Assembly: GCA_963813155.1 (NCBI GenBank)
Contig: CAWEYG010000002.1
Coordinates: 256,001-320,000 of the forward strand
Length of the DNA stretch: 64,000 bases
Direction of reading: 5' to 3'
From: an uncultured Acidobacteriota bacterium
GTDB taxonomy: Bacteria > Acidobacteriota > Thermoanaerobaculia > UBA5066 > DATFVB01
The notes under the pieces are model-generated. The model was not told the DNA's origin. It saw only the letters and a program-made list of their open reading frames with translations, and did no database searches. Every line of letters starts with the position of its first letter. Position 1 is the first letter of the stretch. The translations under genes and the position numbers were made by a program. Positions 36,195 to 55,039 of this stretch are shown here, in pieces.

Positions 36195-36695
36195 CTAGTT
36201 CTGTGGTCCGTCCGGGTACTGCACGAAGCTTCCGTTCGAATAGATGATGTCGTTGTTGAAATTCGTCGTCGTGCCGCACCTGATGGAGGACGGGTCTCCG
36301 TCGGAAATTCCGTCCCGTCCGAACGAGCTGATGTTGTACTCGAAACTCTGATTGTCGACCCCGTAGTGCAGGAAATTTCTCCAACCGTCGGTGAACGGCG
36401 GCTGGATGTACGTGGGCCGAAGAAAAGTGAACGAGTCCGAGCTCAGGGTCACGTTCGCGGAGGGAACGGTCGACGGACACGCCGCCGTCGGGTACGTGCT
36501 GTTGTCCGCGTTGTACGTCTCGACCGCGGTCGCGAGCGTGCGAATGTCCGCCATTGTGCGCTTCTGCTTGCCCCTCTGAAGCGCGTTCAGCAGATTCGGA
36601 ATCGCGATCGCCGCGAGAATCCCGATGATCGCAATGACAACCAGGAGCTCGATCAGTGTGAAGCCTCTTGCGAGGCGATTTCGCCCAAGAGCCAT
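36195..36695 (-). CDS. Type IV pilin (GspG-like), second copy
   Basis: RG|FTLIELLVVIAIIGILAAIAIP, DGW, SFGRDG; strong GGAGG SD. Confidence 0.92.
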   Translation of the reverse strand: MALGRNRLARGFTLIELLVVIAIIGILAAIAIPNLLNALQRGKQKRTMADIRTLATAVETYNADNSTYPTAACPSTVPSANVTLSSDSFTFLRPTYIQPPFTDGWRNFLHYGVDNQSFEYNISSFGRDGISDGDPSSIRCGTTTNFNNDIIYSNGSFVQYPDGPQN

Positions 36696-36746
36696 GATTC
36701 TCCTCCTCCCTAAGACCAACATTCCGACATCCCGGGAGAATCATTC

Positions 36747-36762
36747 TGCAATCCATGGACCA
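36747..36762 (-). promoter_or_regulatory. Candidate sigma54 promoter of second pilin
   Basis: TGGTCCATGGATTGCA = TGG-N8-TTGCA. Confidence 0.65.
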
Positions 36763-36874
36763 AGAATCTGAATCCAAGTATCTGCAAAACAATGAGTTCC
36801 AGCACGCAGAAAACGGGGAACTGACAAGTCTTTGCAGTCGAGGACAGAGACGGCACTTTGAAGACGAATCGGAC

Positions 36875-36904
36875 AAAAAAAAGGCCGGCCTCTCGGCCGG
36901 CCCC
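36875..36904 (-). terminator. Intrinsic terminator after first pilin
   Basis: ggccggcc-gaga-ggccggcc followed by T8 on the minus strand. Confidence 0.85.
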
Positions 36905-36922
36905 TTTCAAGCTCGTCGCAGA

Positions 36923-37438
36923 TCAGTGCTGGGGACCGTCCGGATACGCGATGAACGTGCCGTTGGAGTAGACGATGTCCGCGTTGAAGTCCGTCGTCGT
37001 TCCGCAATTCGACCCGTCGGAGGACGGCGCCGAAGGGCCCGCCGCTCCGTCCCGGCCCTGGACTCGATCGTGTACGACTGGCCAAGGGCGCGGCCGCGCC
37101 GTACAGAAGGGGCTTCTGCCAGCCGTCCTGGAACGGGGGCTGAGCAATGTAGGTCGGCTTCAAAAGCGTGAACGATCCGGACTCGACGGCCGTTGCGGCA
37201 GCGGGAACGTCGGGCAGGTCGTCGCCGTCGGGTACTGGTTGTTGTCGACGTTGTACGACTCGATCGCGATCGCCAGATTTCGAATGTCTGACATCGTGCG
37301 CTTCTGCTTGCCGCGCTGAAGAGCGTTGAGAAGATTCGGGATCGCAATGGCGGCCAGAATGCCGATGATCGCGATCACGATGAGCAGCTCGATCAGCGTA
37401 AATCCAGCTGCTCTCTTTCGAAGACGGTTCAAATTCAT
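36923..37438 (-). CDS. pilA: Type IV pilin, probable major pilin (frameshifts near 37200-37070)
   Basis: AG|FTLIELLIVIAIIGILAAIAIP; TAAGGAGG SD, own promoter and strong terminator; paralogous to 36195-36695. Confidence 0.8.
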
Positions 37439-37555: not shown

Positions 37556-39003
37556 TCAACGACTCGACGGCCGAGGTCGATTTTCTGTCAATTCCTGCGC
37601 CTCCTCGAAAAGCACTTCTCGCATGACGTTCAGACCTCTCGTGTAGAACGGCAGAAAGATCCGCTCGTCGTTTCCGTGACGCCTCGCCGCATCGAGCGGA
37701 TCGATCTGAAACGGCGTGAATCCGTAAGCCGCGACGCCCCGCTTTCGAAATTCGACGGAAGTCGTCCCGGAAAAAGAGTTCACGAGCGGGATCATCGGCA
37801 GCCCGGGGGAGACGGCCTCGAGGACCCGTCGGATCGCCTCCGTGTCCGGGGTCGGATAGGGGGAGGCGATCCCGGCCGGTCCGCACAGCGCGAGGCTCAC
37901 GCGAGCACCGCGCGTTTCGAATCCGCTCGATGAGCCGGTCGAAATACGGTTTCGGGTCGACGCCGAGCGGGAGCGAGACCATCGCGACGCTGCCAAACTT
38001 GTAGCCGCCGGAAAACTCCGGCAGAAGTTTCGCTTCGAACGGGGGCTGTTGCCACGCCCCGCCCGTCACGAGGCTCAGGTTCTGGTACGGAATCCATTTC
38101 GCGACTTCCGGCAGCTTCAGCAGCTCCGGGTGCCGAAACGCGTTCGCGAAGAACGGCGGCCGAAACTCCGACACCGCGTCGAAATACATGTTGAGCGCCG
38201 GCGCCGGCGGCACGTAAAGGCCGAGGCTCTCGAACGCCGGCTCGGGCCGGAGCGCCGCCGGGTCATCGGCCCCGAGGATCGCGTACGCCATCCCTCCCTG
38301 CGCGATCTCGATTCCGACGTAGCGCGGCGTGCCGGCGACGACTTCTTCGTAGCCCTCCTTCGTTCAGGACCAGCTCGACGCCCGAGAGAACGTCCGGCCG
38401 GTGCTCGTAGATCCAGGAAACACCGTCGGTGCCGCCGAGCTCCTCTCCGCACTCCGCGAGGAAGATGACGTCCCGACCGGGCACGAGGCCGGAGCGGAAG
38501 AGATCCCTGTAGGCGAGGAGCTGCGAGATCGCGATCGACTTCATGTCGTACGACCCGCGGCCATAGAGGTAGCTTTTCTCGATCGTTCCCCCGAACGGCG
38601 GCTTCGTCCAGAGCGACGAAGCCACGGGAACGACGTCGATGTGGTTGAGGAGAAGAATCGCCCTTCCCTCCGAGCGGCCCCGGATCCGCGAGTACAGATT
38701 GCAGCGATCCTTTTCGGGACAGATCAATTCCGAGGGAATGCCCTCGCAGTCGAGAAATGCCTTGAGAAATTCCGCTCCCGGCCTCTCGCGCCCCGGCGGG
38801 TTCCTCGTGTCGACGCGAACATAATCCCGCAGCAACCGAATCGATTCCTCCTCGAGCCAGCGAGCGGGCGTCCTCGCGATCTCCGGCTGCCACTCGGGCA
38901 ACTTCAGAGACTGCGCCGGGGATTCGACTCTCCGGCACGAGACCGCGAACAGGGAAAGGACGGCAACCGAAGCGGTGGCGATGATCTTCGAAATGTTGTT
39001 CAT
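37556..39003 (-). CDS. M20/M25/M40 family metallohydrolase, probable lipoprotein (frameshifts)
   Basis: AVSC lipobox-like, NPPGRE, LLNHIDVVP, YGRGSYDMK, GEE, HGNDER. Confidence 0.85.
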
Positions 39004-41330
39004 GCCGTTTTCGCCTCCCGGCAGAGAAAAAGGAGAAGGACCCCGCCCGCGATCGAGATCGCGGGCCCCGCGAGTCCGCCCGGCAGCTGCTCGCGGATCG
39101 AAACTTCATGAGAGCCGGCCGGGATCGCGATCGAGCTCAGGCAGAGGTCCGCCGGATCCACGGACACGGGGCTCCCGTCCACGGTCGCCGAACGAAACGG
39201 GAAGGGGGACCTGGGAAAGACGAGCCGGGACGGGCCCGGCGTCCGGGTCCGAGCGACGATGGAGTCCGGACCGTTGTGCTGGATCGCGAGAGATCCGCCC
39301 GAGAGGTCCGACTCCGCCGACCGGCCCGTTTCGACGACGGTCTCGGTGCGGAAGTCGACGCTCCGGCCGTGGATCCGCTCGTACGCGGCGCCGACACCCT
39401 CCACCTCGATCACTCTTCTCGCGAACCGAAAATTCGGAAGCGCGGAAGGGTTCAGCACGACCCACTCCTGGCCAATCGCTTTTGCGGCCGCCGGGAAGGC
39501 GATCGGGATTCTTCCGCGCTCGACGATCGCGGCCCGCGCCGAGTAGGCGCCCAGAAAGTCCCGGACTCCCGGCCATGTTCCGGAGTCGCGATAGATCTCC
39601 CTTCGAACGAGCTCGACCCGGTAGAAATCCGACACATCGTAGTCCTGATTCAAGGAGTAGAACGTCCCGAACGCGGCTCCGACGTCGCTCCGCAGAGAGT
39701 CCTGGGCTCTCTGAACTCCCGATCGACCCGAGTCTCCGGAGCTCAGGTAGTACTCCTCGAGGGGCAGGAACCCGAATCGGCCGTACCCCTGAAGCCGCGC
39801 GACCGCGCGAGCGGCCGGGGGAGGCGTGAAGATGGTCGCGTCGGAAGACGTTCCGACCGAGCGCCACCGCAACACGGCGAGGTCGGCGACCGAGAAGACG
39901 AAGATCGCGCCGAGCGCGAGCCCGCGGCGGAACGAAGACCAGACGATCATCAGGCCAAGCGCCGCCCAGAGGCCGGCGGATTCGATCAGCATCCGCGGCA
40001 GCTCGCGGGCGCCGGAGGCGCCATTCCGGAGAGTGGCCGACCAGTGCCGATCGATGAACGCGGCGAGCTCGGCCGGTCTCGAAATCGCGGCGAGGCCGGC
40101 CGCAGCCAGCAGAAGCGCGACCGCAAAGGCTCCGGCCGCGAAGCGGGACCGCTCCCCCGATCGAAGCGAGTCGAACGCGAGCCCCCCCAGGAGCGCGATC
40201 CCGAGCGTCGCCCCGGCCATGAGCTTTTCCGGATATCGGAGGGGAATCGGAGAGGATGCCGAGAGCCAGCTCTCCGGCAGAAAAGAGCCGGCCGCCGAAA
40301 CCGCGAAGGAAAACGCCGTGATGCCGTACACGAACAGCCGGCGGCCGCGGGGAGGGCGAAAGAACAGGAGAGCCGCTGCCGCGAGAACGCCGGGAAACAG
40401 AGTCTGAAAGAATCCGGCAGTCTTGTTGCTCCAGAGCGATTCTCCCCACACGTGGGGGGACGAAGCGGCATTGCCGAACGGAAACGGAAGGACCATCTCC
40501 AGGAGACGCCACGGCGACACCGACCACGTGACCGCCGCGCGCAGCGGAAAACGTCCGAGCGCGCGAACCGTGTGGGGAACGAAGAGAAGCGCGGGAACGA
40601 TCTGGATTCCGGCGAGCAGAAATCCCGGAAGAGAGGCCAGAAACAGAGCTCCGACCCGCCGGAGACCCTCCGAGCTTCGCGACTCCTGCAGGACGAGGAG
40701 GATCGCGCCGACGAAGGCGAGACCCGCGGTGAAAACGTCTCCCACGAGGAGATCGACGCCCCAGATCGCCGCGAAGAGAGCCGCGCTTCGGCCCGTCTTC
40801 CGGTCCGCGAACCGGGCGGCCGCCCAGAGGATCCAGGGGAGCAGGGCCAGGCCCGGAAGAAAATCCGGGTAGACGATTTCCGAAAGTGCGGGGCCGCTTC
40901 CCGCATAGAGCGCGCCCGTGAGCATCGCCGAAGTCGAAGAAATGCCGAAGAGGCGCGCCAGAAAGAAGGCCCCGACGCCCGCGAGCCAGAGGTGAAACAC
41001 CGGAAAGAGCTTGAACGAAACCCGGAACGGCAGCGCCGCCATCGCGATTCGCACCGGATAGAAGACGCCGGTGTTGGGGTTTGCCGCCAGCGGCCTGCCG
41101 AAGGAGACCTCGGGCAGGATCAGCGGAATTCTCCCCTGCTGCCAGGAATCGTGGACGGCTTTTTCGATCGGAAGGAAGAACGGCACCATGTCCCGGCTCG
41201 CGAAGGTTTTCCGGACCAGCAGCGGATCCGCGAACAGCGCGAGCAACACTCCCGCGAAACCGAGGGAGAACCAGAGCCCGGACCGCCGTTGGAGGAATTC
41301 CCCTCGATTCTCGCCGGAGAGCGCAAACAT
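39000..41330 (-). CDS. YfhO-family GT-C membrane protein
   Basis: SRDMVPFFLP, GRIPL...GRPLAANP...FYP, LRYPEK, C-terminal ATVDG...IPAGSHEV. Confidence 0.8.
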   Translation of the reverse strand: MFALSGENRGEFLQRRSGLWFSLGFAGVLLALFADPLLVRKTFASRDMVPFFLPIEKAVHDSWQQGRIPLILPEVSFGRPLAANPNTGVFYPVRIAMAALPFRVSFKLFPVFHLWLAGVGAFFLARLFGISSTSAMLTGALYAGSGPALSEIVYPDFLPGLALLPWILWAAARFADRKTGRSAALFAAIWGVDLLVGDVFTAGLAFVGAILLVLQESRSSEGLRRVGALFLASLPGFLLAGIQIVPALLFVPHTVRALGRFPLRAAVTWSVSPWRLLEMVLPFPFGNAASSPHVWGESLWSNKTAGFFQTLFPGVLAAAALLFFRPPRGRRLFVYGITAFSFAVSAAGSFLPESWLSASSPIPLRYPEKLMAGATLGIALLGGLAFDSLRSGERSRFAAGAFAVALLLAAAGLAAISRPAELAAFIDRHWSATLRNGASGARELPRMLIESAGLWAALGLMIVWSSFRRGLALGAIFVFSVADLAVLRWRSVGTSSDATIFTPPPAARAVARLQGYGRFGFLPLEEYYLSSGDSGRSGVQRAQDSLRSDVGAAFGTFYSLNQDYDVSDFYRVELVRREIYRDSGTWPGVRDFLGAYSARAAIVERGRIPIAFPAAAKAIGQEWVVLNPSALPNFRFARRVIEVEGVGAAYERIHGRSVDFRTETVVETGRSAESDLSGGSLAIQHNGPDSIVARTRTPGPSRLVFPRSPFPFRSATVDGSPVSVDPADLCLSSIAIPAGSHEVSIREQLPGGLAGPAISIAGGVLLLFLCREAKTA

Positions 41331-41361
41331 GCTGGCGCCGATGATAATAGAGGACCGAGAG

Positions 41362-42771
41362 ATGGCCACGAAACTCGATCGCCCGGCGGCGGCCCTCGCG
41401 GGCGGGATTCTCGTCCTTCGGGCGATCTCGCTCGCCCGGCGGCCGCTGTGGTTCGACGAGATCTTCACGCAATGGATCGCGCGGAAGTCTCCCTCTCGAA
41501 TCGTCGAGAGCCTTCGTCTCGACTCGGGACCGCCGCTCTTCTACTTCCTCGCCCACCCTCTCGTTCGCGCGGGAGAGCTCCTTCGGTTCGATCCGGCGGC
41601 GCGGATTCTCTCCTTCCTGGCGATCGGTCTCCTCTTCGCCGCGATCCGGCCGCGATATTCGGGCGGACCGAGGTTCGCGGTCCTGCTCGCGGCGTCTCCC
41701 CTGATGTTCTTCTACTCCGGAGAGGCCCGGCAGTACGCGCTTCTCGCCGCCGTCTCCTTCGTCCTGTTCCTCGCGGCCCTGCGCGCGCGCGACGAGTGGA
41801 CGCCCCGGCTCTGCGCGGCGCTTGCGGCCGCCGCCCTTCCCTGGATCCACTACCTCGGCGTCTTCGTCGTCGCCGGGTCCGTGATCCTTTGCCTGGCCCG
41901 GAAGAGACGCGTCGGCGCGATACTTCAAGTCGCCGGAGCGAGCCTGTTTCTGGTCTGGGCTCCGATCGCCCGGGCCCAGCCGCCGCTTTCGCTCTCCTGG
42001 AACGTCTCCGCGGCTTCTTCCGTGCGCGTCTTCGCGGCGTTCGGATTCTGGGGGGATTCGCTTCCGTATTTTTCCGGCTGGCGGACGCCCGCGGCCTGGG
42101 CCGGAATCGCCCTGGGGGTCGCCCTTCTCCTGACCGCCGCCGCGAACGCACGGAAGTCCCGCGCGGTCCGCGACGCGCTCGCGTTCTCGATCCTTCCCCT
42201 GCTCCTCGTCCTTCTCGCAAGCCGGGTCCGCCCCGTTTACTTTCCCGGCCGGACGGAAATGGCGACTCTCCCCGTCGCACTGTGGGCCCTCGCGCGGGCT
42301 TCGCGCCGCTCGCGCGCGGTCAACGTTCTGACGCTCGCCGCCGCGATCGGAGGCTTCGCGGTGATCGCGGGATCTTTTCTTCGACCGGCGGGCCCGTTTC
42401 CGTACTCGGAAACGGCGAAATTCCTGGCGGCACGCTGCCGGCCCGGCGACGTCGTCGTCGCGGCCGACGCGAACTACCTGCCCCTGCGGCTCGAAAAGGA
42501 TCGGGCAGCGCTCGCCGCGCCGCTTGTCGGGCTGCCGCTCGAACTGGAGTCGCACCCGGGTTGGTTCGAGCCGATCGATCCTTCGAAAATCGACGGCGAG
42601 GCGGCCCGGCTGAGGCACCGGATCGCCGCCGTGCCGCCCGGCGGCCGCGTCGAGCTCGCGATTCCGCCGGACCCCGCCCTGCGCGATCTGGCCCAACGAA
42701 GCCTGGAGAGCGGAGCGAGACGAGTTCTTCGCCCGCCGGCGGGCTACGCGATCCTCGAAGTCGATCGCTGA
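41362..42771 (+). CDS. ArnT/PMT-like GT-C membrane glycosyltransferase
   Basis: [29 protein letters not shown] motifs. Confidence 0.8.
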
Positions 42772-44189
42772 CCCGGCGCCGCTTCGGCCGGTGAGGACGG
42801 CTTTCGCCCGATCGCCAGAAGCGACATCCCGTACGACGGGGGATTCCCGGTCTCGGCCTCGAGGAAAGGCTTGAGAAGAGCGAAGAGTCGGAGCTGGCCC
42901 TTCGGCAGCACGCGGCGCCGGAGAATCCGCGAGTTCAAGTACCAGCCGAAGACCCCGGGCCGGTTCAGGAACCTCACGTCTTCGATCTGAAATCCGGCCT
43001 GTTGCAGTTTGGACTCCAGCTCCGGCCGCGAATATCGGCGAAAGTGGTGCAGCTCCCGATCCAGCGTGCCGTAGAGCCGGGGCATCGCCGGGACGAGCAG
43101 GATCAGCCGGCCGCCCGGCCGCAGGACCTCCTGGATCTGCGAAAGGGTGGTGCGGTCGTCTTCGATGTGCTCGAGGACGTTCGAGCAGATCGTGGTGTCC
43201 AGGCGCTCGCCGAGAAGGTCTTCGATCTCGGGCGGGTCGAGGGGAAACTTGAGCGAGCCGACCCGCACCCCCGGGTGGTCGCGAAACGTGTTGCGCAGGG
43301 TCTCGCACGCGACGGGATCCAGGTCGGTCGCGATCACGCGCTCGCGGTCGGCGAAGTATTTCGTTAAATTTCCGAACCCCGAGCCGATCTCCAGGATCCG
43401 TGCTCCCAGGTGCTCGCGGAAGAATCCATAGAGCCACCGGTTGTAGAAGTCGAGCTTCGCCATCCGCGCGAGAGTGACGTGTCCGACGTTGCGGGGGTCT
43501 TCGACTTCCCGAAAACGGAATTTCAGCATCGTCCAGACGGCCGAGACGGCGTCGCGAAACCCGATCTTCTTTCCCTCCTCGTAGGTCCGGCCGTAATAGG
43601 AAATCGGGACCTCGTACACGCGATAGCCCCGGCGGGCGATTTTCGCGGTGATTTCGGGCTCCATGCCGAAGCGGGGGGATTCGAGGCGGATCGACTGGAT
43701 GACTTCCCGGCGGAAAACCTTGTAACAGGTCTCCATGTCGGTCAGGTTCAGATTTGTGAGCATGTTCGAAAGAAACGTGAGGAACCGGTTGCCGACGGTG
43801 TGCCAGAAATACAGGACTCGCCGCTCTCCTCCGCCGAGAAACCTCGAGCCGTACACGACGTCGGCGCGTCCCGTCTCGATCGGATGGATCAGCCGGGGAT
43901 AGTCGGCCGGGTCGTATTCGAGGTCGGCGTCCTGGATCAGCACGAGATCGCCCTTCGCCTCGAGGAACCCGCGAGCGATCGCCGTTCCCTTCCCGCCGTT
44001 CTGCTCCTGGAAGAAAACGCGCACGCCGTCGCGGCCCTCCAGCTCCTTCAGGATCTCTCGCGTGCCGTCGGTGGACCCGTCGTCGATGATGAGGATCTCC
44101 TTGTCGATCGGGACCGCGACGACGCGCGAGACGATCTCGCGGATCGTCGCCGCTTCGTTGTAAGCCGGGATCACGACGGAGAGCTTCAC
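42744..44189 (-). CDS. GT2 (polyprenol-phosphate glycosyltransferase-like) fused to class I SAM methyltransferase
   Basis: [33 protein letters not shown], then [28 protein letters not shown]. Confidence 0.9.
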
Positions 44190-44219
44190 GCGCGGAGAAT
44201 ATCTCAGAGATAATCGGCC

Positions 44220-46215
44220 ATGCTGTTCGCCGCGCCCCGCCGCGGATTCTGGATCGGCCTGGGCGCCGTCGTTCTCCTCGCCCTCGCCGTGCGGCTGACG
44301 GCCGAGAAGAGCCTGCGGGAGACCGCGCCGGCCCGATTCGTCTCCCCCGATTGCCTCTACCACATGCGCCGGGCTCGATTCGCCGTGGCCCACTTTCCCC
44401 GGATTCTCTTCTTCGACCCGACGATCGACTATCCCTCCGGAGCCGTCTCGATCTGGCCGCCCCTTTTCGATCTCGCGCTCGCGCTTCCGGCACGGGCGCT
44501 CATCGGACCGGCCGCATCGCGCCTCCAGATCGAACGACTCGCTTCCCTGGTTCCCCCGGTTCTCGGGGCGCTCGCCGTCGCCGCGGCGGCTCTCCTCGCC
44601 GGAAGAATCCGGCGGGGCTACGCCCTTCCGGCGGCCGCCTTCGTCGCGCTGTGCGGCGCCCACGTCCAGTACTCGCAATACGGCCACACGGATCAGCACG
44701 TCGCGGAATCTCTCACGAGCCTCGTCGCGATCGCCCTGTTCGTCCGGGCGCGCGAGAAACCCGGCATCGCGCGCGAAGCCCTCGCCGCGGCGGGTCTCGC
44801 CGCCGCCGTGCTGACGTGGCAGGGCGCGATCTGCTGGGCCGCCATGATCGCCGCCGTTCTCGCCTTCGACGCGTTTCGCGCGCGGAGCTCGAGCGTTGCC
44901 CGCGCCGCGGCGATCGTCCTCGGAGGGTCGGCCGCCGTCACGGGCGCGGGCGTCGCATTCTGGCTCGCCGGCGACTCGCTGCCTTTCACGTTCATCTCGT
45001 TCGGCTGGTTTCATCCGGCGTTTCTCCTCGCCCTCGCGACGTGCACGATCGCGATCTCCATCGCCGCGGACGCGCTTCGCCGCAGGGCCGGAAGCCGCGC
45101 GGCCCTGCTCGCAAGGGTGGCGGCCGTTCTCGCCGGTGCCCTTGTTCTGGGCAGCCGCGCGGGCGACCTCCTCCGGGGGCTTCTGGGCGGCATCGGTCAC
45201 GTGACGATCCAAAGCAGCGCGAGAATGGCGAGGGGCGGCTACACCTCCACTCCGCGCGAGTTCCTCCAACAGGTGTTCGAAGCGCGCCCGTTGCTGGCTG
45301 ACGGACTCCGTCTTCCCGTCGACGCTCTCTCGATCGCGTTTTTTCTGATTCCGGTCCCCCTCTTCATCTGGGTTGCCCGCGCCTTGGCGAGGCCCGCGGC
45401 GGGAAATGCACGGGGCCCTGGCGGGATGGGGAAGCTCTGACCCTCTTTCTCGCGCTCGCGCAGCGATTGAACATCTATTACGCCGCGCCGCTCGCCGCGA
45501 TCGCCGCGCTCGAGACGGGCCGCCAGGCGGCGGTGCGGCTCCGGTTCCGCCTCCGTCGCCGCGGGACCAGCCGGAAAGATCTGGCCGGCCGCGGCCGCGG
45601 GTGCGCTCGCGCTGGCCGTCGCGGCGACGCTTCTCCCGGGACTGCGCCGGCAGATCGCAACGCGATACGAGCCCGGAGACGATCTCATCCGGACGCTCGA
45701 CGAGGCGCGCTCCCGGCTCCCGCACGCCGTGGACATCTACGACTCCCGCTTCCTGCCGCCGCGCCGCCCGGTGCCGGAGCTCGCCGGCGCGGAAGCCTTT
45801 CTCGCTCCCTGGTCGCTCGGCCATTTCGTGACCTATTACGCCGAGATGCCCGTCGTCGCGGACAATTTCGGATACGGCTTCACCGACTCGATCCGCTTCT
45901 TCCTCTCGGAGGACGAGGAAGAGGCGGCCGCCCTCGCCCGGTCGCGGCGGGTCCGGTGGATCCTGGCGACGGACCTGCTGCCGAAAATGAACGACTACGC
46001 GAAAGTCGCCGGCCGCGCCCCCTCGGTCGAGCTCACGCCGGCGGGACCGCGGCTGACTCCCGCTTACTTTCGCACCCTGCAGCACCGCCTCTACGACGAG
46101 GACGGAGCGCGGCGCCGAACCCCTCGCGCACTTCCGGCTCGTCTATGCGTCCCGGACCGGCATCCGCCGTTTCGGGCGATTTCTCGCCCAATGGAAGATC
46201 TTCGAATTTCGATGA
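44220..46215 (+). CDS. STT3/AglB-like oligosaccharyltransferase (frameshifts near 45430, 45600 and 46110)
   Basis: [18 protein letters not shown]....[42 protein letters not shown]-terminal HFRLVYAS...KIFE. Confidence 0.8.
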
Positions 46216-47848
46216 CTCGGAGCGCTTTCAGGGTTACGGGAGCGCGATCGAGCGCGATCCGGAGCTCGCGAATGTCGTCCGGGCTCCGCGCCTCCGAGGC
46301 GAGCTTGCGCAACTCCAGGCGGTGCGGATCGAGCGAGGTAAAGCTCTCGAGCAATCGAGCGCGCAGGACGCGCTCCGAAAACCTGCCCTCCGGCGGCCGG
46401 CCGACGAACAGGAGCGCGAAAAGGAGCGCTCCCCCCGAGACGGCGAGCGCGACTCGAACGGAGTCGCGAAACGCCGGCCAGAGAGCGGCAGCCGCGGCAG
46501 CGAGCGTCACCGCCGCGCCGACCGCCAGGTTCGCGGGCCCCGAACCCAGCAGCGAAGGAGCGATCCATCCCCGGGAAAGCCAGAACGCCGAATAGAAGCG
46601 AAGTCCCGCGTCCGGCTCGTGGGGAAGAAACCAGAACGTCGCGGTGGAGAAGAGGAACAATAGCGCGGAGTAGACCACCGCCGCGGCCGCGATCCAGGTC
46701 CAGAGCCCCGGCGGCTCCCCGGCCTCCCGAGGCTCCCCGAGCGCCGCAAGCGGCCAGAACGCGAGCAGAACCGCCGGAACGAGGTACCGCGAACCGAGCG
46801 CCCATCCTCCATGCCAGTTTTCGTATCCGGTCATGACGACGAAGAAGAGGGCCGACGCCCCGAGACCGACCGCGGCGGCGCGGGAGCGTCCCGCGGGGCG
46901 CATCAGCGCGATCGGAAGCAGCAGCAGGATCGGGGACTCGAACACCAGGCCGCGGCTCTCGGAGAAAAGGTATCGAAGCGCGATACCGGCGTTCGGCGCG
47001 AGAAACCCGAAAAAGGCGTGGGACAGCGTCGTGTGCGCGCGGTACCACTCGTAGCCGTACGACAGTTTCCAGGGGCTGCCGAAGCAGGACGCGTTGTAAA
47101 CGCCGAGAAGAGCCGCGGGAGGAACTCCTCCGGCGGCGAATGCCGCGGCGCGCTTCCAGCTCCTCCGCGCGGCGCCGACGAGCAGGACGGCGACGACGAC
47201 GAAGACGGGGAACTCCGAGATCACGGCCCAGCCCGCGAGCAGGCCCGCGAGCGCCGCGCGCCCGTGCGAGCCCGGCTCCTCGTCGAGAAGCTCGAAGGCG
47301 ATGTAGAGGAGCGCGGCCGACCACGCGTGGGAAAAGAACGAGCGCGCGTAGACGATCAGCGGCGTTCCGAACGCGGCGGCGAAAAGGACGAGCGCCCCGG
47401 TCCGTCCGCCCGGCGAGATTTTTCTCGTTCTTCGCCCGAACAGCGCGAGCGCGATGATCACGGACAGGGAAACCGTCGAGAGCCGAAGCAAATAGAGCAT
47501 CAGCTGCATGTTGGAACGGTCCGCGGGGCCGAGAAAGATCCGGAACAGGAGGTAGAACGGAAGAGCCGCGAAGGAGAGACCGGGAGCTTTGTTGGAATAG
47601 ACATGACCGTTGAAATCCGCCCGGTCTTCGTGGGTCCCGAACTTCGCGAGCTCCTGATCGATCGCGAAAGTCCCGCGATCCGCCATCGACACCACGAGGT
47701 CGAATCGACTAAACTCGTTCGGACTCTGTGAAAACTCGCCGCCCCCGCGGGGCGGAAACAGGTTGACGAAGAAGACCGTGACGAGCAGAAAGGCCCCGAG
47801 CACGACCCGCGAGGCTCGCTCGTCCGCAGTTCCCCTCCAGCGCGTCAT
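46091..47848 (-). CDS. GT-C type multi-pass membrane protein (3' end uncertain)
   Basis: PNEFSRF...[35 protein letters not shown]. Confidence 0.7.
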
Positions 47849-47875: not shown

Positions 47876-48628
47876 ATGACGATACCCGAGACGCCGCGCG
47901 GCCGGAAGGTCGTCGTCGTCATGCCGGCCTACAACGCCGAGCGAACGCTCGAACGCACGCTCGCCGACATTCCGCATGAATGGGTCGACGAGATCATCCT
48001 CGTCGACGACGCCTCTCGCGACGGCACCGTCGCGCTGGCCCGAAAGCTCGGGCTGCGGGTCGTCGTCCACGACCGGAATCGGGGCTACGGCGCGAACCAG
48101 AAAACGTGTTATCGCGAGGCGCTGGCCGCGGGCGCCGACGTCGTCGTGATGATCCACCCCGATCACCAGTACGACCCGCGGGTTCTCCCGGACCTCGTTC
48201 GACCCATCCTCGCGGAGGAATCGGACGCCGTGTTCGGAAGCCGGATGCTCGGCGGTCGAACGCTCGAGGGGGGAATGCCCCGGTGGAAGTACTACGCCAA
48301 CGTTTTCCTGACGGCCTGCGCGAACGTCGCGTTTCTTCGATATTTCACGGAGATCCACAGCGGCCTGCGCGCCTACTCGAGCCGCTACCTTCGCTCCATT
48401 GCGCTCGAGAAAAATTCGAACGATTTCATCTTCGACACCGAGATCATCGCGCAGGGAGTCGCCCGACATATGCGGTTTCGCGAGATTCCGATCGAGACGC
48501 GCTACTTCGACGAGGCCTCGCAGATCAACTTCCGCCGCTCCCTCCGATACGGGCTCTCGATCCTCTGGGTGCTGTTCAAGTTCAAGCTCAACTCCTGGGG
48601 AATCTGGCGAAGCGCGATCTTTCGGTGA
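47876..48628 (+). CDS. GT2 polyprenol-phosphate glycosyltransferase (DPM synthase-like)
   Basis: VVMPAYNAE, VDDASRDGT, NRGYGANQKTCY, HPDHQYDP, FGSR. Confidence 0.9.
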   Translation: MTIPETPRGRKVVVVMPAYNAERTLERTLADIPHEWVDEIILVDDASRDGTVALARKLGLRVVVHDRNRGYGANQKTCYREALAAGADVVVMIHPDHQYDPRVLPDLVRPILAEESDAVFGSRMLGGRTLEGGMPRWKYYANVFLTACANVAFLRYFTEIHSGLRAYSSRYLRSIALEKNSNDFIFDTEIIAQGVARHMRFREIPIETRYFDEASQINFRRSLRYGLSILWVLFKFKLNSWGIWRSAIFR

Positions 48629-51027
48629 ACCGCTCGCGCTGGCTCCCGTTTCTGGCGATCGGCGCTTTTCTCTCCCCGCTTCTGCCCGAGCTCGCCGGCG
48701 CCCGGCTGCTCGCGTTTCGGGATGCGTTCATCACGCACTTTCCGATTCAAACCTTCAGCCTCGCGCTGGAGCGTTCGGGCCAGGTTCCTTTTCTCAACCT
48801 CGGCGCCTCCAACGTCGAGCCGCTCCTCGCGAACCCGAATACCGTCACGCTCTACCCGACTCACGTCCTGTTTCACCTGTTCCCCCCCGCCGCCGCGTTC
48901 AACCTGCATCTCCTGCTGCACGTCGTGTGGGCGTTCTTCGGAGCGGCGGCGCTGAGCCGACGGCTCGGTTCGGGAAGGCGCGCGGCGTGGATCGGAGGCG
49001 CGGCGTACGCGTTCTCGGGGCCGTTCCTCTCGTACGGAGCGGCGTTCGCAAATGCCGCGGCCGCGGCCGCCTGGGCTCCGTGGGCGATCTCCGAGGCCCT
49101 GCGCCTCGGCCGCGCGATTCGCGCCGGCCAGGCGGCGCGCTCCGGCAAGGCCGCGCTCGCGGTCGGAATCGCCCTCGGTCTCCAGATCCTCGCGGGCGAA
49201 CCGGCGGTCTCGGCCTGGACCGGCGTCGCCGTCGTGGCCTGCTCCCTCGCCGCCTCCCGGGGCTCGATTCTCCGCCTGGCGGGCGCCGGCCTCGCGGCGG
49301 GCGCGACGGCCGCCGCGCTCGCGGCCCCGCAGGTCCTCTCGACCGCGGCCGCGATCCCGTACTCGTTTCGGGGAGAGCACCTCTTCTCGCGAGCCCAGTT
49401 CGACGCGGCCGCGAACCTGCCGCTTCGGGCGCTCGAATCGCTTTTTCCCCTCGTGTTCGGCGAGCCCCGCCCGCTGATTTCCGGCGCGTTCTGGGGATAC
49501 CGCGCGTTCGATTCTCTGCAGCCCTACCTCTATTCGATGAATTTCGGGCTCGCCGGCGCGATTCTGGTCGTCTCGGCGCTGGCAAGCCGGTCGTTCCGCT
49601 CGTCGCGGACAGTGCTCGCGCTGTTCGCGGCGGCTGCGCTTTTCGGCTTGCTGAGCTTCGGCTTCCGGACGCCGCTGTTCGAGATTCTCTACGCCATGAA
49701 GCCGCTGCGGCACTTCCGGTACCCGGTCAAATTCGCGATTCCGGCGGTGCTGTTCGGATCCGTGCTCGTTTCTCTCGCGACCCGAGAGGCGATCGACGCG
49801 GAAAGAGCTCCGCGGACGCTGCGATACGTCTCGGCCGCAGTGGCGGCGGCGCTGGCCGCGACATTCGGCGCAATCGCCCTCGCACCGCAGATCCTGACTC
49901 GCGTTCTCCAATCGCAGCTTTCCGGGCTTGCCGCGCCTCCCGAGGCGATCCTGTCCGGCGTGGCCCGAACGCTCCGGCGCGATTGCCTCTTCGGGCTCGC
50001 GGCGCTCGTCGTGCTCCTCCTCGCGGCTTCGGCGCAGCGCCGGGCCTGGCGGGCGGGCGGTTTTCTCGCTGCCACCCTGCTCTGTCTCCTTCCGTCCGGA
50101 TCGCGGCTCTTCGTCTCCGTTCCGACGTCCCCATACCTGGCCCGGCCTCCGCTCGCGGACCTCGTCGCCGGCCGAGGCCGGTTATGGGTAGCTCCGATTT
50201 CGGAGTTCGCGGTCGCGAAATTCGGAACGTCGCATCGGTTTCCGAACGACGACGTCTCCGACCTGATCGTCGCCGGCCGCCAGGAGATCTGGCCCCTGAC
50301 CGCGCTTCCGGACGGAGCCGCGTATGCGTTCGACGCCGATCCCGACGGCTCGTACGGGTTTCTGGACCGCGCCATGAGGGAGGCGCTCTCCTCCGCGGGC
50401 GCCGAAGCCCGCAGCCGGATCCTGAGAAACGCGTCCGTGGCCTTCTACCTCTCGGCGAAGCCCGAACCGTTGCCCGGGTACATTCCGTTCGCCCGCCAGC
50501 AGGTCTTCGGACGAACGCTGTTTCTCTTTCAGGCCCTGGATCCCGTTCCGGCCGTCCGATGCGCCGAGCGCGTCTTCTCCCGATCGTCGCTCTCGGGGGC
50601 GATCGAGCTCGTCGAGTCCCCGCGGTTCGATCCGGCCCGCGACGCCATTCTCCGGGGGTCCGACCGCGACCCGCCCGCTGCTTCGGCCGCGGCGCAAGGA
50701 GTCTCGGCGATCCGTCTCAACGCGAGCGGGCTCTCGGCCGAAGTCGACGCTTCCGCCTCGGGAGTCGTCGTGTTCGCGGCGACGTATTTCCGCTACTGGC
50801 GCGCCGCTGTCGACGGAGTTCGCGCGGACGTCGAGATCGCCAACGGCGAGTTCTCCGGCGTCCGCGTCCCGCCGGGACGCCACCGGGTCGAGCTCTTCTA
50901 CGACGCCCGGCCGTTCCTCGCGGGGAGTCTCGGGTCGGCGGCGTTTCTCGCCGTCTCTCTCATCCTCGCCCCGGTGTTCGCGTTTCGAGCGCGGAAGCGA
51001 CGGTCCCTGCCCTCCCCGGCAGCGTGA
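48625..51027 (+). CDS. YfhO-family GT-C membrane protein
   Basis: FRDAFITHFP, GQVPF...PLLANP...LYP, FRYPVKF, WRAAVDG...ANG.F.GV.VPPGRHRV...Y. Confidence 0.8.
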   Translation: MNRSRWLPFLAIGAFLSPLLPELAGARLLAFRDAFITHFPIQTFSLALERSGQVPFLNLGASNVEPLLANPNTVTLYPTHVLFHLFPPAAAFNLHLLLHVVWAFFGAAALSRRLGSGRRAAWIGGAAYAFSGPFLSYGAAFANAAAAAAWAPWAISEALRLGRAIRAGQAARSGKAALAVGIALGLQILAGEPAVSAWTGVAVVACSLAASRGSILRLAGAGLAAGATAAALAAPQVLSTAAAIPYSFRGEHLFSRAQFDAAANLPLRALESLFPLVFGEPRPLISGAFWGYRAFDSLQPYLYSMNFGLAGAILVVSALASRSFRSSRTVLALFAAAALFGLLSFGFRTPLFEILYAMKPLRHFRYPVKFAIPAVLFGSVLVSLATREAIDAERAPRTLRYVSAAVAAALAATFGAIALAPQILTRVLQSQLSGLAAPPEAILSGVARTLRRDCLFGLAALVVLLLAASAQRRAWRAGGFLAATLLCLLPSGSRLFVSVPTSPYLARPPLADLVAGRGRLWVAPISEFAVAKFGTSHRFPNDDVSDLIVAGRQEIWPLTALPDGAAYAFDADPDGSYGFLDRAMREALSSAGAEARSRILRNASVAFYLSAKPEPLPGYIPFARQQVFGRTLFLFQALDPVPAVRCAERVFSRSSLSGAIELVESPRFDPARDAILRGSDRDPPAASAAAQGVSAIRLNASGLSAEVDASASGVVVFAATYFRYWRAAVDGVRADVEIANGEFSGVRVPPGRHRVELFYDARPFLAGSLGSAAFLAVSLILAPVFAFRARKRRSLPSPAA

Positions 51028-51874
51028 TCCTTCCGATCGGCCGCTCTGGCAAGTCCTCTTTCGAGCGGGCTTCCCGGCCGAAGACCTCGAGCGGAACGAA
51101 GTCCGCGCCTCGTTCGCGCCAGGCGGCGAGCAGCCGGCCGAACCACTCGAGGTAGGGTCCCCCTTCGACCTCCGAGTGGATCGTGTGAACGGCCCCGTCG
51201 CGAGCCAGACCGCCGTAGAACGACAGCAAGGAATCGGCCGAGCGGGAGCGCGGATCGCCGATCGTCTCGTCGAGGGTAGGCAGGGTCGTGGGAATCTCCG
51301 GAATCCCCGATGCGACGCCGCCGAAGACGGGGCGGAATGGCGCGCCCTCCCGCGTGTCGGACGTGTACAGGAGGGGATACGTCTCGCGGACGGCGAGGTA
51401 GTCGTCGGACACGGTCCATCCGGCGCACGCGGACGAAGCGGCCGGCCGTCCGAAGATCGACTTGAAGGTCTCCATCGCCCGCCCGTATTCCCGGGCGATC
51501 CTGTCCGGAGGCCAGCGGGCGAGCCCGTCGTGCCACGAAACGTGGTCCCAGGCATGAACGCCGACTTCGTGCCCCGCCGCGCCCGCCGAACGGATCTGAT
51601 CTCGCGCGAAGCGGGAAATCTCCGGAGCCGGGAGGAGCGTCCCCGAAAGCATCGTGCGCACCGGGTAGAGCGACGGAGCCCGCGAGCGAAGCATTTTCCG
51701 GAGAAAGCCGCGCCGCGTGAACACCCGCAGGGCCGCGCGGCCCGACCGATCCGGCCCCAGGGAAAAGAAGAACGTCGCTCGAATCCGATGCTCGTCGAAC
51801 AGGCGCATCAGCCGCGGCACGCCGTCGCGCGTGCCGATCGCCGTGTCGCAGTCGACCTTCAAAGCGATCCGCAT
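50960..51874 (-). CDS. arnD: Undecaprenyl-phosphate-Ara4FN deformylase
   Basis: IALKVDCDT..GTRDGVPRL, ATFFFSLGPDRSGR, HAWDH..W, IPTTLPTLDE, HTIHSEVEG. Confidence 0.88.
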   Translation of the reverse strand: MRIALKVDCDTAIGTRDGVPRLMRLFDEHRIRATFFFSLGPDRSGRAALRVFTRRGFLRKMLRSRAPSLYPVRTMLSGTLLPAPEISRFARDQIRSAGAAGHEVGVHAWDHVSWHDGLARWPPDRIAREYGRAMETFKSIFGRPAASSACAGWTVSDDYLAVRETYPLLYTSDTREGAPFRPVFGGVASGIPEIPTTLPTLDETIGDPRSRSADSLLSFYGGLARDGAVHTIHSEVEGGPYLEWFGRLLAAWRERGADFVPLEVFGREARSKEDLPERPIGRITLPGRAGTVASALETRTPGRG

Positions 51875-51900
51875 CGTCGAAGGCAGGATATCCTCGCATC

Positions 51901-54175
51901 GTGTTCGGAAAGAAGAAATCGGCGGAGCCGTCGACGATCGGCCGTTACCGGGTCCGCCGCCGAATCGGCGAGGGCGGCATGGGAATCGTCTACGCCGCGG
52001 AAGACGAGCGCCTCGGCCGAAACGTCGCGATCAAGAAGCTGCATCGCGAGAGCCAGGATCCGAGCGCCCGCGAGCGGCTCTGGCGGGAGGCGCGCGCCGC
52101 CGCGAGCGTCAACCACCCCAACATCTGCCAGGTCTACGAGATCGCCGAGGAGGAAGGCGAGCCCTACATCGTCATGGAGCTGCTCGAGGGGGAATCGCTC
52201 GGGACGAGGATGACGGCCGGCGCGCTGCCCCTGGCCGAATCGGTTTCCATCCTCCTGGAGGTTCTCAACGGACTCGAAGCTCTTCACCGCGCGGGCTTCC
52301 TGCACCGCGACCTGAAGCCGTCGAACATTCATCTGACCCGCAACGGCGTGAAGCTCCTCGATTTCGGGCTCGCCCGGCGGCACGCCGGCTCGTCGGACGG
52401 AGCGGGCATCTCGGCCGTCGATCTCACGGCGACCGGAATCCTCGTCGGAACGCCCCGATACATGTCCCCGGAGCAGGCGCGGAGCGAGCCCGTCGGCGCG
52501 CGGAACCGACATTTTCGCCGCCGGCGCGATTCTCTTCGAAATGATCTCCGGAAAGCCCGCCTTCGGCGGACGAACGCCGGTGGAGGTTTTCCAATCGATC
52601 CTGAACGAGCAGCCCCCGGCTCTCGGAGGGTCGCCGACGATCGTCGCCGTCGACCAGGTGATTCGCAGGGCGCTGGCGAAGAAGAGCGCGGATCGCCACC
52701 CGTCCGCCGCCGCGATGGCCGACGCGCTCCGGGCCGCCCTGCTCGCGGAAGAGTCGACACCGTCGAACGTCGTCGTGGCGCGCCCCATGACGCGGCTGAT
52801 CGTGCTTCCGTTCCGAATCCTTCGCAGCGATCCGGAGACCGATTTTCTTTCCTTCAGCCTTCCGGACGCGATCAGCTCCTCGCTCTCCGGCTTGAGCACT
52901 CTCGTCGTCCGTTCGAGCCTGGCCGCGGCGCGCTACGCCGGCGCGCCCGACCTGAAGACGATCGCGGCCGAGATGGACGTCGACGTCGTCCTGACGGGAT
53001 CGCTCCTGAGAGCCGGCGACCGCCTGCGCGTGACCGTGCAGCTCGTGGAAGCGCCGGGAGGCGCAGTCCGATGGTCGCAGACCTCGGAAGTCGCCCTCGA
53101 CGACATCTTCCGGCTGCAGGACGGGATCGTGCGCGAGACGCTGCAGTCCCTCGCGCTGCCGCTGACCTCGCGGGAGCGCAATCTTCTCGGCAACGACATT
53201 CCCGCGACGGCGCGCGCGTACGAGTTCTATCTGCGGGCCAACCAGCTCGCCAACGACACGGCGAACTGGCGGCTGGCGGGCGACCTCTACCGCGAGTGCC
53301 TGCGGGAAGACTCCGACTACGCGCCGGCGTGGGCGCGCCTCGGAAGGATTCTCCGGCTCCTCGCGAAATTCTTTCCCCAGGAGCACGGTCGCCTGCTTCC
53401 GGAAGCCGAGCAGGCGTTCGAACGAGCCCTCGCGCTCAATCCGGACCTTTCCCTCGCGCACAACTACTTTTCGCAGTTCGAGGTGGAAGAGGGCCGGCCG
53501 GCCGACGCGTTGAAGCGGCTTCTGACGAGGGCGGCCCCGGGGAGCAGCGATCCCGAGATCTACACGGGACTCGTGCACGTCCTGCGCTACTGCGGGTTTC
53601 TCGAAGCCTCGGTCGCCGCGGACGCGTGCGCGCGCCGGCTCGACCCGGCCGTGCGGACGAGCGTCGGGTTCACCTACTTCATGCTCGGCGAGAACGAGAA
53701 GGCGCTCTCGTTCGACACCGGCCTCGTTCAGTTTCCCAAGCTCTTCGCTCTCGTCGCCCTCGGCCGAATTCCGGAAGCGCTCGCCGGCTATCGCGAAGTC
53801 GTCGATCGGGTGGACGGCGTCGGCCAATTGCTTTGCCGGACTCAGATCGCGGCGCTGGAGGGAAACCGGGACCTGTGCCGGGAGTTGCTCGCGCAGTCGC
53901 GGGAGGTCTCCTTCCGCGATCCGGAGGGCCGCTATCTCCTCGCGCGAACGTACGCGTTCGTGGGGGAAGAAGAGCCCGCTCTCGAGATTCTGGGCGGCGT
54001 CGTCGACACGGGGTTTTTCTGCGTGCCGGCGTTCATGAAAGACGCCTGGCTCGACCCGGTGCGCGCGAACCCGAAATTCGCGGAGATCGTCCACCGCGCC
54101 GAAGCTCTCCAGCGCGCGGCCGCGGTTGTCTATTCCGAATCGCACGGCGAGCGACTGCTCGGGCCCGCGAGGTAG
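51901..54175 (+). CDS. Ser/Thr protein kinase with TolB-N-like and TPR domains (frameshift near 52500)
   Basis: GEGGMG, VAIK, HRDLKPSN, DFGLA, GTPRYMSPEQ, then VLPF...D.I...L and TPR helices. Confidence 0.9.
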
Positions 54176-54300
54176 GGCCGTGGCTCCGGCCCCTAGATCC
54201 GATCCTTCTTTTCCCGAAGCTTTCAGACTCGAATGCCTGTCCCCTTTTCCCGGGACCCGCGATAGGAAGCGTGGGGGTATGATTTTCGCGATGCTCTTCC

Positions 54301-54392
54301 GCCTAACGCAGATCGTCCTAGTCCGACACCCCGGCGGCCCTCTTTCCTCTATCGGGGGACACCCCCTTGCGTCTAATCACATGTTCGGCGGC
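54301..54392 (+). mobile_element. Degenerate attC-like site
   Basis: GCCTAAC at 54301-54307 ... gtctaatcacat-GTTCGGC at 54383, with ATG 13 nt after the GTT start. Confidence 0.4.
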
Positions 54393-54395
54393 TAA

Positions 54396-54945
54396 ATGAA
54401 GGTTCTCGCCGTCGTTTCGGCTGTGACTTTCTTGGCAGGTCAAATCATGGCCCAGGAGGCGGCCTCGTCACATAAGGTTTGCTGGCCGTTACATTTTGCC
54501 GGGTTGACCGTTGGCTTTACCACCGATTCTGAAATGCGGCGTCTCCTAGGCGACGGCCTTTTCCGAAAGGACGAGGGTGACTCAGGCGGGCGCGTCTTCA
54601 TCGACAAGGGTCGGAAAGCCACGCTTCATGCCCGATGCTATACCGATAAGGTGATCGGGGACCTCACCCTCTCCGTCGGCGTAGATCCCGGGCTCTCGAG
54701 GACTGAGCAAAGAAAGGCAGTTAGTCCCCACTTCGACCACGTGAAGGGTTTGGCAACTGGCATGCCCTTAACCTTGGAACCACTAAGGCAGAGGTTCTTA
54801 AGAATCTCGGTCCGCCCGAGAATGGCAACGAGACCAATGAATGGCGATACACACGGAATGTTCTTGCGAGATCGAGAATGGCTTTACGATTACTTTTGCT
54901 AAGGACCACATTGTACGGATATACCTTGAAGCGCCATCAGGTTAA
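54396..54945 (+). CDS. Hypothetical secreted protein, cassette-like (probably frameshifted; restored end TAA at 54945)
   Basis: Signal peptide; AT-richer than host; alternative frame gives ...CSCEIENGFTITFAKDHIVRIYLEAPSG-stop. Confidence 0.55.
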
Positions 54946-55002
54946 GCCGCACAACATAGAGTTAGAGTTGTGATCCGGCTGGCCTATGCTCCTGCTTAGA
55001 TG

Positions 55003-55025
55003 ATGACAATGTATTACAATGTCAT
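55003..55025. promoter_or_regulatory. Palindromic operator / promoter of TA operon
   Basis: atgacaatgtattacaatgtcat near-perfect inverted repeat containing TACAAT, ~15 nt upstream of the antitoxin ATG. Confidence 0.65.
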
Positions 55026-55039
55026 ACAGAGGTGAAACC

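Follow-up and report, generated by a model that had tools for sequence, protein, structure and literature searches.

We analyzed a 64,000-nucleotide stretch of DNA (the window, by which we mean this stretch at its full length) from an uncultured, Thermoanaerobaculia-like soil bacterium of the Acidobacteriota and found that it encodes an intact, single-copy homologue of AglB-type glycosyltransferases, members of the STT3 superfamily with the GT-C fold. The predicted protein keeps the AglB catalytic residues and carries PWSLG where characterized relatives carry the acceptor-binding motif WWDYG. Because two of the three residues of this Trp-Trp-Asp (WWD) pocket are replaced throughout the clade (P-W-S/A/T), we suggest, at roughly even odds (a probability of about 0.5), that the protein is an active AglB-type transferase with an acceptor rule other than the classical N-x-S/T sequon.

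An AglB-type gene with spurious frame breaks

The gene was recovered on the plus strand and is read across three frames, with every motif string quoted in the initial annotation present in a three-frame translation of 44100-46400. The encoded protein has a 13-transmembrane-type N-terminal region followed by a short periplasmic core domain. The longest plain open reading frame (ORF) at the locus encodes 406 amino acids (44220..45440), so the gene as deposited is broken. It is the only STT3-family gene in the source genome, which is 90.8% complete. Its extent and motif strings are as follows:

44220..46215 (+), AglB/STT3-like (GT66-type) glycosyltransferase gene, 663 amino acids once four spurious bases are disregarded
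44346-44363 (+), PDCLYH, frame 0
44454-44471 (+), WPPLFD, frame 0
44688-44699 (+), TDQH, frame 0
45807-45824 (+), PWSLGH, frame 0, past the third break
45855-45881 (+), VADNFGYGF, frame 0, past the third break
46129-46152 (+), HFRLVYAS, frame 1
46192-46212 (+), WKIFEFR, frame 1, with the stop codon at 46213-46215

Alignment of the DNA with two related genomes revealed four single extra bases in the window gene. One of the two, G001 (87.8% nucleotide identity), is of the same genus and holds an intact orthologue of 663 amino acids (L004:694-2682, minus strand). The other, G002, was the third row in the orthologue extraction, the DNA alignment and the register comparison, and a further genome, G008, was one row in the order and phylum tallies below; both are flagged unpublished, and no conclusion hangs on either alone. 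For comparison we also aligned contigs of four public soil-metagenome runs (X1-X4) over 44200-46300:

45385..45387 (+), extra base 1, in CCTTGGC, frame 0 to 1; missing in the X1-X4 contigs, G001 and G002
45434..45437 (+), extra base 2, frame 1 to 2; missing in the X1-X4 contigs, G001 and G002
45567..45570 (+), extra base 3, frame 2 to 0; missing in the X1-X4 contigs, G001 and G002
46108..46110 (+), extra base 4, in GCGCGG, frame 0 to 1; missing in the X1-X3 contigs, G001 and G002

The closest run, X1, has 80% of sampled words, and its pieces show 1-4 substitutions per 0.4-1 kb against the window (~99.7% identical); they omit one base at each of 45386, 45434, 45570 and 46110. The remaining runs represent more distant populations, X3 and X4 (and, in one count, X2 as well) being from other studies. 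Bases are omitted within 1-3 bases of all four sites in X2, at the first three in X3 and X4, and at the fourth in X3 too; X4 covers the fourth site without showing the deletion. A fifth extra base, at ~46238 and outside the gene, is omitted in X1-X3. The extra bases are located in GC repeats or short runs of G/C. In the register of G001, no internal stop interrupts the window gene, which has 89.9% amino-acid identity to its orthologue (597/664 codons); the ratio of nonsynonymous to synonymous substitution rates (dN/dS) between the two falls from 0.165 ahead of the first break to 0.101 beyond it (codons 389-663).

Since the soil-run contigs lack the extra bases, the corrected register is free of stops and dN/dS is 0.10, the four frameshifts are consensus errors of the assembly, and the population carries an intact gene encoding 663 amino acids. 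Real frameshifts would have counted against the initial annotation, but the soil-run contigs show the breaks to be artefacts. A decaying pseudogene with real frameshifts would account for the four breaks in the deposited sequence, but this is highly improbable: no run has the first three extra bases in its contigs, and the fourth is missing in three runs; the sequence past the first break is under purifying selection with no stops, and other window genes carry similar single-base breaks, which indicates that the window assembly is prone to indels. We therefore rejected the pseudogene reading, and the window frameshifts are not to be taken as biology.

Membership in the STT3 superfamily was supported by both profile and structure searches. 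The Pfam family PF02516 (cut-off 24.5 bits) matched the first 406 amino acids of the window product at 46.2 bits and the intact G001 orthologue at 53.8 bits, and NCBIfam TIGR04154, the archaeosortase-A-associated archaeal STT3 subfamily, matched the window pieces at E 8e-39 and 1e-9; a WWDYG-bearing representative, P0150, reaches 575.3 bits on the latter profile. An AglB_core-like match in one window piece scored 23.8 bits, below the cut-off of 27. The C-terminal window piece aligned with the solved core domains of Archaeoglobus fulgidus AglB-S at E 1e-8, placing PWSLG under WWDYG. A single-sequence search of the PDB with the N-terminal piece gave chance matches only (siroheme synthase, E 0.2), so a profile was needed: profile A1, built from 60 relatives, matched the full-length AglB-L of A. 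fulgidus (AfAglB-L, 5GMY) at E 6e-105, human STT3A at E 5e-32 and Campylobacter PglB at E 1e-8.

We then built an AlphaFold2 model with alignment A1 as input, using the G001 orthologue (89.9% amino-acid identity) rather than the window's own broken sequence (predicted local distance difference test 95.5, predicted template modeling score 0.94). The best Foldseek match of the model was AfAglB (7E9S, E 6e-25, template modeling (TM) score 0.78), followed by eukaryotic STT3, PglB and DPY19, in line with the multi-span GT-C membrane domain and periplasmic mixed alpha/beta core of solved oligosaccharyltransferases (OSTs). The STT3 assignment of the initial annotation is thus upheld by a PF02516 match above cut-off and an OST fold, as is its view that the protein resembles euryarchaeal AglB more than PglB (profile E 6e-105 versus 1e-8; TM score 0.78 versus 0.62).

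The AglB proteins of A. fulgidus, archaeal N-oligosaccharyltransferases of CAZy family GT66 (AglB-L, 3WAJ/3WAK/5GMY/7E9S; C-terminal domains of AglB-S1/S2, 3VU0/3VGP), are the best match of the window protein in both sequence and fold. The two share the D47/D161-x-H163/E360-type catalytic residues, a Gly-His after the acceptor motif and an N-N-F-x-x-G stretch. As in the short AfAglB-S paralogues, the C-terminal domain consists of the core unit only: the peripheral AglB_L1 domain was not found in the intact orthologue, which ends straight after the core. The window protein differs from AfAglB in having PWSLG for WWDYG, a bacterial host and a score of 185 bits against the archaeal subfamily cut-off of 450, and also in an Arg near the phosphate site that has moved by one position in this lineage (QRLN versus QNRF in AfAglB-L). 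PglB (3RCE, 5OGL, 6GXC), likewise a single-subunit bacterial periplasmic enzyme, has the same superfamily and fold (TM score 0.55-0.62) but is far more distant, with only positions 388-524 aligned in the profile search, and it carries WWDYG and the MI motif. The donor of PglB is an undecaprenyl-pyrophosphate heptasaccharide made by the pgl operon, whereas no pgl-type operon was seen at the window locus.

Alignment of hidden Markov models (HMMs) with AfAglB-L located the catalytic positions:

44349..44351 (+), Asp44, first catalytic acidic residue, pairing with D47 of AfAglB-L
44691..44699 (+), Asp158-Gln-His160, metal-site motif, pairing with D161-H162-H163 of AfAglB-L
45279..45281 (+), Glu354 in VFEARPL, pairing with E360 of the TIAE motif (TIAEVYP) in external loop 5 of AfAglB-L

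The acidic/His residues of the two DXD-type motifs, which bind the metal and activate the acceptor in the STT3 superfamily, are present, and so is its TIXE/SVSE-type loop Glu. Conservation of D44, D158, E163, E354, W79-P-P and D84 is at least 90% among 60 diverse relatives, and D44, H160, E354, W530, G533 and H534 are invariant in 22 closer ones. Judged by these pairings, the AglB catalytic centre is complete, comprising Asp44, Asp158-x-His160, Glu354 and an Arg next to the phosphate-binding position.

A rewritten acceptor motif shared across a bacterial clade

In the core domain, the acceptor motif and a candidate for its partner motif were located at the following positions:

45807..45824 (+), P529-W-S-L-G-H534, in place of WWDYG(H)
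45969..45998 (+), candidate kinked-helix (DK-type) motif of 10 residues, with D584 and K588 near E613 and K618 of AfAglB-L, in an unreliably aligned stretch

The replacement of WWDYG by PWSLG, claimed in the initial annotation, was confirmed against three solved proteins. PWSLG pairs residue for residue with the WWDYG of AfAglB-S1 and -S2 (3VGP, 3VU0), and P529-W530-S531-L-G533-H534 pairs with W550-W551-D552-Y553-G554-H of AfAglB-L in the HMM alignment. According to the available part of PMC3703281, the pocket for the +2 Ser/Thr is formed by Trp-Trp-Asp together with the second signature residue of a DK or MI motif; the DK motif of Archaeoglobus is described there as the variant E613<insert>K618 on a kinked helix, hard to align without structures. 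In the window protein, the stretch T-D584-L-L-P-K588-M-N lies opposite E613...K618 of AfAglB-L, although alignment is unreliable here without structures, as the same excerpt cautions. D584 is at least 90% conserved in the 22 close relatives, and the sequences read have K or R at position 588. D-S-I-R-F-F (residues 555-560) had also been considered as the DK motif and was rejected, given that the excerpt places the motif on the later kinked helix. The pocket has thus lost its first Trp and its Asp; the second Trp is kept and the basic residue possibly kept. The WWDYG expected of functional N-oligosaccharyltransferases is absent, and a pocket with two of its three WWD residues gone may have the relaxed or different acceptor specificity that had been proposed from the motif.

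The substitution is not peculiar to the window. At nine relatives' loci, the orthologues read PWSLGH in six cases and PWALGH in two, and one contig ends before the motif. In a search of 5.8 billion proteins we found 266 matches at E <= 1e-3 among 8000 scored, and of the 120 cluster representatives listed 117 carry [P/A]W[S/A/T/G]xGH (PWSLGH 78, PWALGH 20, PWSMGH 8, PWTLGH 6, PWGLGH 3, PWSFGH 1, AWSLGH 1), with WWD anywhere in none. The three exceptions are the window's own 406-amino-acid product and two sequences outside the pattern used. Whether homologues share PWSxG, a question raised at the outset, is therefore answered for the clade as a whole, and the suggestion of a little-studied bacterial clade is borne out, its members sharing the motif.

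A broader search, of 1.84 billion representatives, returned 1991 clusters at E <= 1e-3; tightening the threshold to 1e-10 left 951, and 1e-30 left 67. Among the best 150 of the 1991 clusters, 119 were at least 550 amino acids long, and we dropped P0133, P0145, P0147, P0153 and P0246 for garbled motif columns, leaving a tree of 115 rows including the query, of which 9 read WWDxG, 25 xWDxG, 22 PW[S/A/T]xG and 59 something else. In this FastTree phylogeny, computed with the motif columns excluded, midpoint-rooted for drawing only and with many long branches flagged, the query falls in an 18-row clade (support 99) in which 16 rows are PW[S/A/T]xG, all nine WWDxG rows fall in a separate 14-row clade (support 100), and the query's 72-row half of the tree contains no WWDxG row.

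Searching from a distant representative, P0194, yielded 233 proteins at E <= 1e-20, the few named ones being Myxococcota 'STT3 domain-containing protein' or 'Deltaproteobacteria bacterium'. In this clade 115 of the 120 listed match the pattern, nearly all as P-W-x-[LIV]-G-H, whose third position accepts nearly any residue, and WWD occurs in 0/120. These Myxococcota proteins resemble the window protein in being AglB-like, in having P-W-x-L-G-H and no WWD, and in lying on the same side of the tree; they differ in their length of ~750-790 amino acids, in carrying an AglB_L1 peripheral domain and the metal motif D-H-H, and in a hypervariable third motif position, which is S/A/T/G in the window's clade. 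The motif of the Thermoanaerobaculia is thus a single state within a far larger radiation of WWD-less bacterial proteins.

The gene is a near-constant feature of the window's order. Orthologues with open frames of ~650-850 amino acids were detected in 29 of 31 genomes of the order; of the two genomes without one, one has a completeness of just 51%. Across the phylum, 21 of 301 evenly sampled genomes, each at least 80% complete, have a match at E <= 1e-10. Strong ones (E below 1e-45) are confined to the window's own order, and the matches in other classes are weak, patchy paralogues. Named matches of the close-relative protein search are Thermoanaerobaculia or Acidobacteriota metagenome-assembled genomes, and public annotation calls the relatives 'STT3 domain-containing protein'. 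The part of Lombard 2016 (PMC4973528) available to us describes only 'a few bacterial homologues' nested among euryarchaeal AglB through at least two transfers. Full-text literature searches, subscription-only papers not covered, found nothing about WWD-less clades in bacteria or about STT3/AglB homologues in Acidobacteria or Thermoanaerobaculia.

Gene neighbourhood

To describe the surroundings of the gene we counted homologues of its neighbours within 6 kb in 79 related loci, some of them cut by contig ends, from a species-level genome collection. All 79 bear Thermoanaerobaculia or Acidobacteriota titles, which says nothing on other phyla because the search used a narrower alignment (A2) with clade-specific patterns. 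The neighbouring genes, with these counts where made, are:

41071..42771 (+), polytopic membrane protein without a family match (upstream GT-C), in the same cluster; 38/79 loci
42747..44213 (-), AglJ/ArnC-like polyprenyl-phosphate GT2 fused to an S-adenosylmethionine (SAM) methyltransferase domain, divergent, 6 bp from the STT3-like start; 72/79 loci
46235..47800 (-), polytopic membrane protein of the LA_3751/LA_3752 putative glycosyltransferase family (downstream GT-C), convergent; 71/79 loci
47876..48628 (+), second AglJ-like GT2, 250 amino acids; GT2 match in 72/79 loci, the best match in most of them lying within the GT2-methyltransferase gene, in its GT2 part
48652..51027 (+), YfhO-like large membrane protein (GT-C type); 69/79 loci
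50963..52030 (-), ArnD-like deformylase/deacetylase of a polyprenyl-phosphate-linked sugar (NF011923, E 7e-69, 232 bits, below the cut-off of 382); 23/79 loci
55541-57100 (-), ArnA-like UDP-glucuronate decarboxylase/formyltransferase (NF008872, 564 bits, above cut-off)
57514-59301 (-), ArnC-like gene (residues 267-573, 373 bits against a cut-off of 529)

The downstream GT-C gene seems to overlap the STT3-like gene by 124 bp, an effect of the fifth extra base. Both GT2s are closest to AglJ (E 1.6e-36 and 1e-24, below the equivalog cut-off) and next to haloarchaeal dolichyl-phosphate hexose transferase, ArnC or PpgS, all enzymes that load sugar onto polyprenyl phosphate. A typical related locus, L022, has the order GT-C, GT2-methyltransferase, PMT_2-like GT-C, GT2, STT3-like, GT-C, YfhO-like, ArnD-like and ArnA-like, the last two standing directly after the STT3 cluster. 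With AglJ/ArnC-like GT2s, GT-C proteins and Arn-like genes as its neighbours, the gene is predicted to belong to a periplasmic glycosylation island running on polyprenyl-monophosphate sugars.

Within 19 kb of the gene we detected six further large polytopic membrane proteins (32338-33876 (-), 34494-36185 (+), 39000-41468 (-), 41071-42771 (+), 46235-47800 (-) and 48652-51027 (+)), of which two are YfhO-like, one is LA_3751-like and three are without a family match. In G001, the corresponding locus (L017) matched the upstream GT-C, the downstream GT-C and the YfhO-like gene in part only and with broken frames. The window has all three whole, and L038, from another assembly, matches them at full length; the G001 assembly is thus indel-prone too. 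The formyltransferase part of the ArnA-like gene sits in another frame. A Ser/Thr kinase-TPR gene at 51901-54175 (+) goes out of frame midway through its kinase domain and is carried on by a TPR-repeat ORF; the break is a single-base difference from G001 at ~52500 and looks like another assembly frameshift. A homologue of this gene was found within 6 kb in only 1/79 loci, so there is no conserved TPR partner.

Pilins had been put forward in the initial annotation as proteins on which to assay glycosylation. Two tandem type IV pilin/pseudopilin-like genes with GFTLIELL N-termini lie at 36195-36722 (-) and 36741-37438 (-), the first with N_methyl and T2SSG matches and the second split over two frames (37160-37438 / 36741-37163). 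They are 7.5 kb from the STT3-like gene, beyond the conserved cluster, and gene order does not support a link to it. Pilin homologues within 6 kb were found in 0/79 loci, but a flank of 6 kb stops short of a pilin that lies 7.5 kb away, as in the window, and the count is not informative. In the first pilin we counted 5 N-x-S/T sites where shuffled sequences average 2.25, a marginal excess (P = 0.049). Upstream of the glycosylation island are an ATPase of the type II secretion/type IV pilus kind (T2SSE) fused to HEAT repeats (26371-28995 (+)) and a prepilin peptidase (Peptidase_A24, 31573-32277 (-)).

Elsewhere in the window, 54200-55540 has a lower GC content (0.58 versus ~0.67), and two small adjacent ORFs at 55019-55261 and 55268-55531 (+) look by eye like a ribbon-helix-helix antitoxin and a RelE/ParE-type toxin. 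An 8-kb stretch at 8000-16000 also has a low GC content (0.59 versus 0.65-0.70 around it), and between ~7474 and 17054 the window does not align with the syntenic region of G001; this may be an inserted element.

Acceptor specificity and the place of the clade

We infer the donor type, the class of acceptor and the altered sequon from the conserved residues and the gene cluster. Because the AglB catalytic centre is kept, the donor is most likely a sugar or short glycan on a polyprenyl-phosphate carrier at the periplasmic face. The acceptor is most probably a periplasmic or surface polypeptide, a preference that follows from retention of the OST-specific loop Glu and the whole core domain, the core being the more constrained part of the protein (dN/dS 0.10). 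In the mechanism we propose, the adjacent AglJ/ArnC-like GT2 would load a sugar onto polyprenyl phosphate at the inner face, where the fused methyltransferase domain may methylate it, and the lipid-linked sugar would be flipped to the outer face. There the AglB-like enzyme would transfer it with the help of a divalent metal bound by D44, D158 and H160, and E354 on the mobile external loop would clamp the substrates.

Several observations weigh against this proposal. The intact orthologue scores 184.9 bits on TIGR04154, under the subfamily cut-off of 450 bits, and because both this cut-off and WWDYG are missed, we do not class the window protein as a demonstrated N-oligosaccharyltransferase. 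The soil contigs of X1, on which the repaired frame partly depends, possibly come from the window's own source sample and so are not fully independent. The second Trp, the Gly-His, a small hydroxyl residue (Ser/Thr in most members) and a Lys/Arg at the candidate DK-motif position are kept, and with these the protein could still read N-x-S/T. Finally, the ArnD-, ArnA- and ArnC-like neighbours point to modification of lipid A or polysaccharide rather than protein glycosylation.

This last point leads to a different kind of enzyme, a GT-C transferase that works outside protein glycosylation and moves a monosaccharide from polyprenyl phosphate to lipid A or the lipopolysaccharide core, an exopolysaccharide or another glycolipid, as part of an Arn- or Gtr-like cluster. 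We consider this unlikely, if worth serious attention. Besides the ArnD-like deformylase, the ArnA-like decarboxylase/formyltransferase and the ArnC-like gene, the cluster encodes two to three polyprenyl-phosphate GT2s and at least five to seven large, polytopic proteins of GT-C type, and no soluble GT1/GT4 oligosaccharide builder was seen alongside among the ORFs scanned. There is also a precedent in DPY19, a C-mannosyltransferase (7ZLG-7ZLI) that appeared among the structural matches: its STT3-like fold (TM score 0.57-0.62 to the model) acts on acceptors other than N-x-S/T, and like ArnT (5EZM/5F15) it is a GT-C enzyme with a polyprenyl-monophosphate monosaccharide donor. Neither, however, has a sequence-level family match to the window protein, both have other catalytic and acceptor motifs, and ArnT reaches a TM score of only 0.31-0.39. 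A role away from proteins also fits poorly with the retention, under strong purifying selection, of the entire AglB core and of the OST-specific Glu in the loop (E354 with P357), and with the presence of ArnD-like genes in fewer than a third of the related loci (23/79). Moreover, the conserved cluster contains a separate PMT_2/ArnT-like protein (L022:3438-5345) that could serve the Arn branch.

Alternatively, the protein might be a conventional N-oligosaccharyltransferase still reading N-x-S/T, its pocket rebuilt from Trp530, Ser/Thr531 and the kinked-helix Lys/Arg. The conserved catalytic centre and whole core domain would suit such an enzyme, as would a basic residue aligned opposite K618 of AfAglB-L (the residue named in the available part of PMC3703281), the confinement of position 531 to S/A/T/G in the clade and, weakly, the sites in the nearby pilin. 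Yet Trp-Trp-Asp forms the pocket according to that excerpt, and its first Trp and Asp are gone here. Position 531, moreover, is Ala in 20/117 and Gly in 3/117 sequences, neither of which is able to hydrogen-bond, and the sister Myxococcota clade tolerates almost any residue at the third motif position. We regard a rebuilt N-x-S/T pocket as unlikely and prefer an active AglB-type transferase with an acceptor rule of its own.

More broadly, and with somewhat less than even confidence, we suggest that Thermoanaerobaculia proteins with PWxLGH and the larger radiation without WWD, in Myxococcota and elsewhere, may form a functionally distinct STT3 branch that uses polyprenyl-monophosphate sugars and either glycosylates proteins of the periplasm or surface by a new, non-N-x-S/T rule or has a non-protein acceptor. 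If so, bacteria would possess a glycosylation system that is of archaeal descent and as yet undescribed. Specific to the window's clade are the PW[S/A/T]xGH state and the AglJ/Arn-type cluster. The WWD pocket has been treated as a near-universal signature of protein N-glycosylating enzymes in all three domains of life, and here a large bacterial clade, order-wide and under purifying selection, has kept the catalytic machinery and rewritten that pocket. If the acceptor rule is new, these proteins would widen the known chemistry of protein or envelope glycosylation in abundant soil bacteria, help in explaining how OST specificity evolved and offer a possible source of enzymes for glycoengineering.

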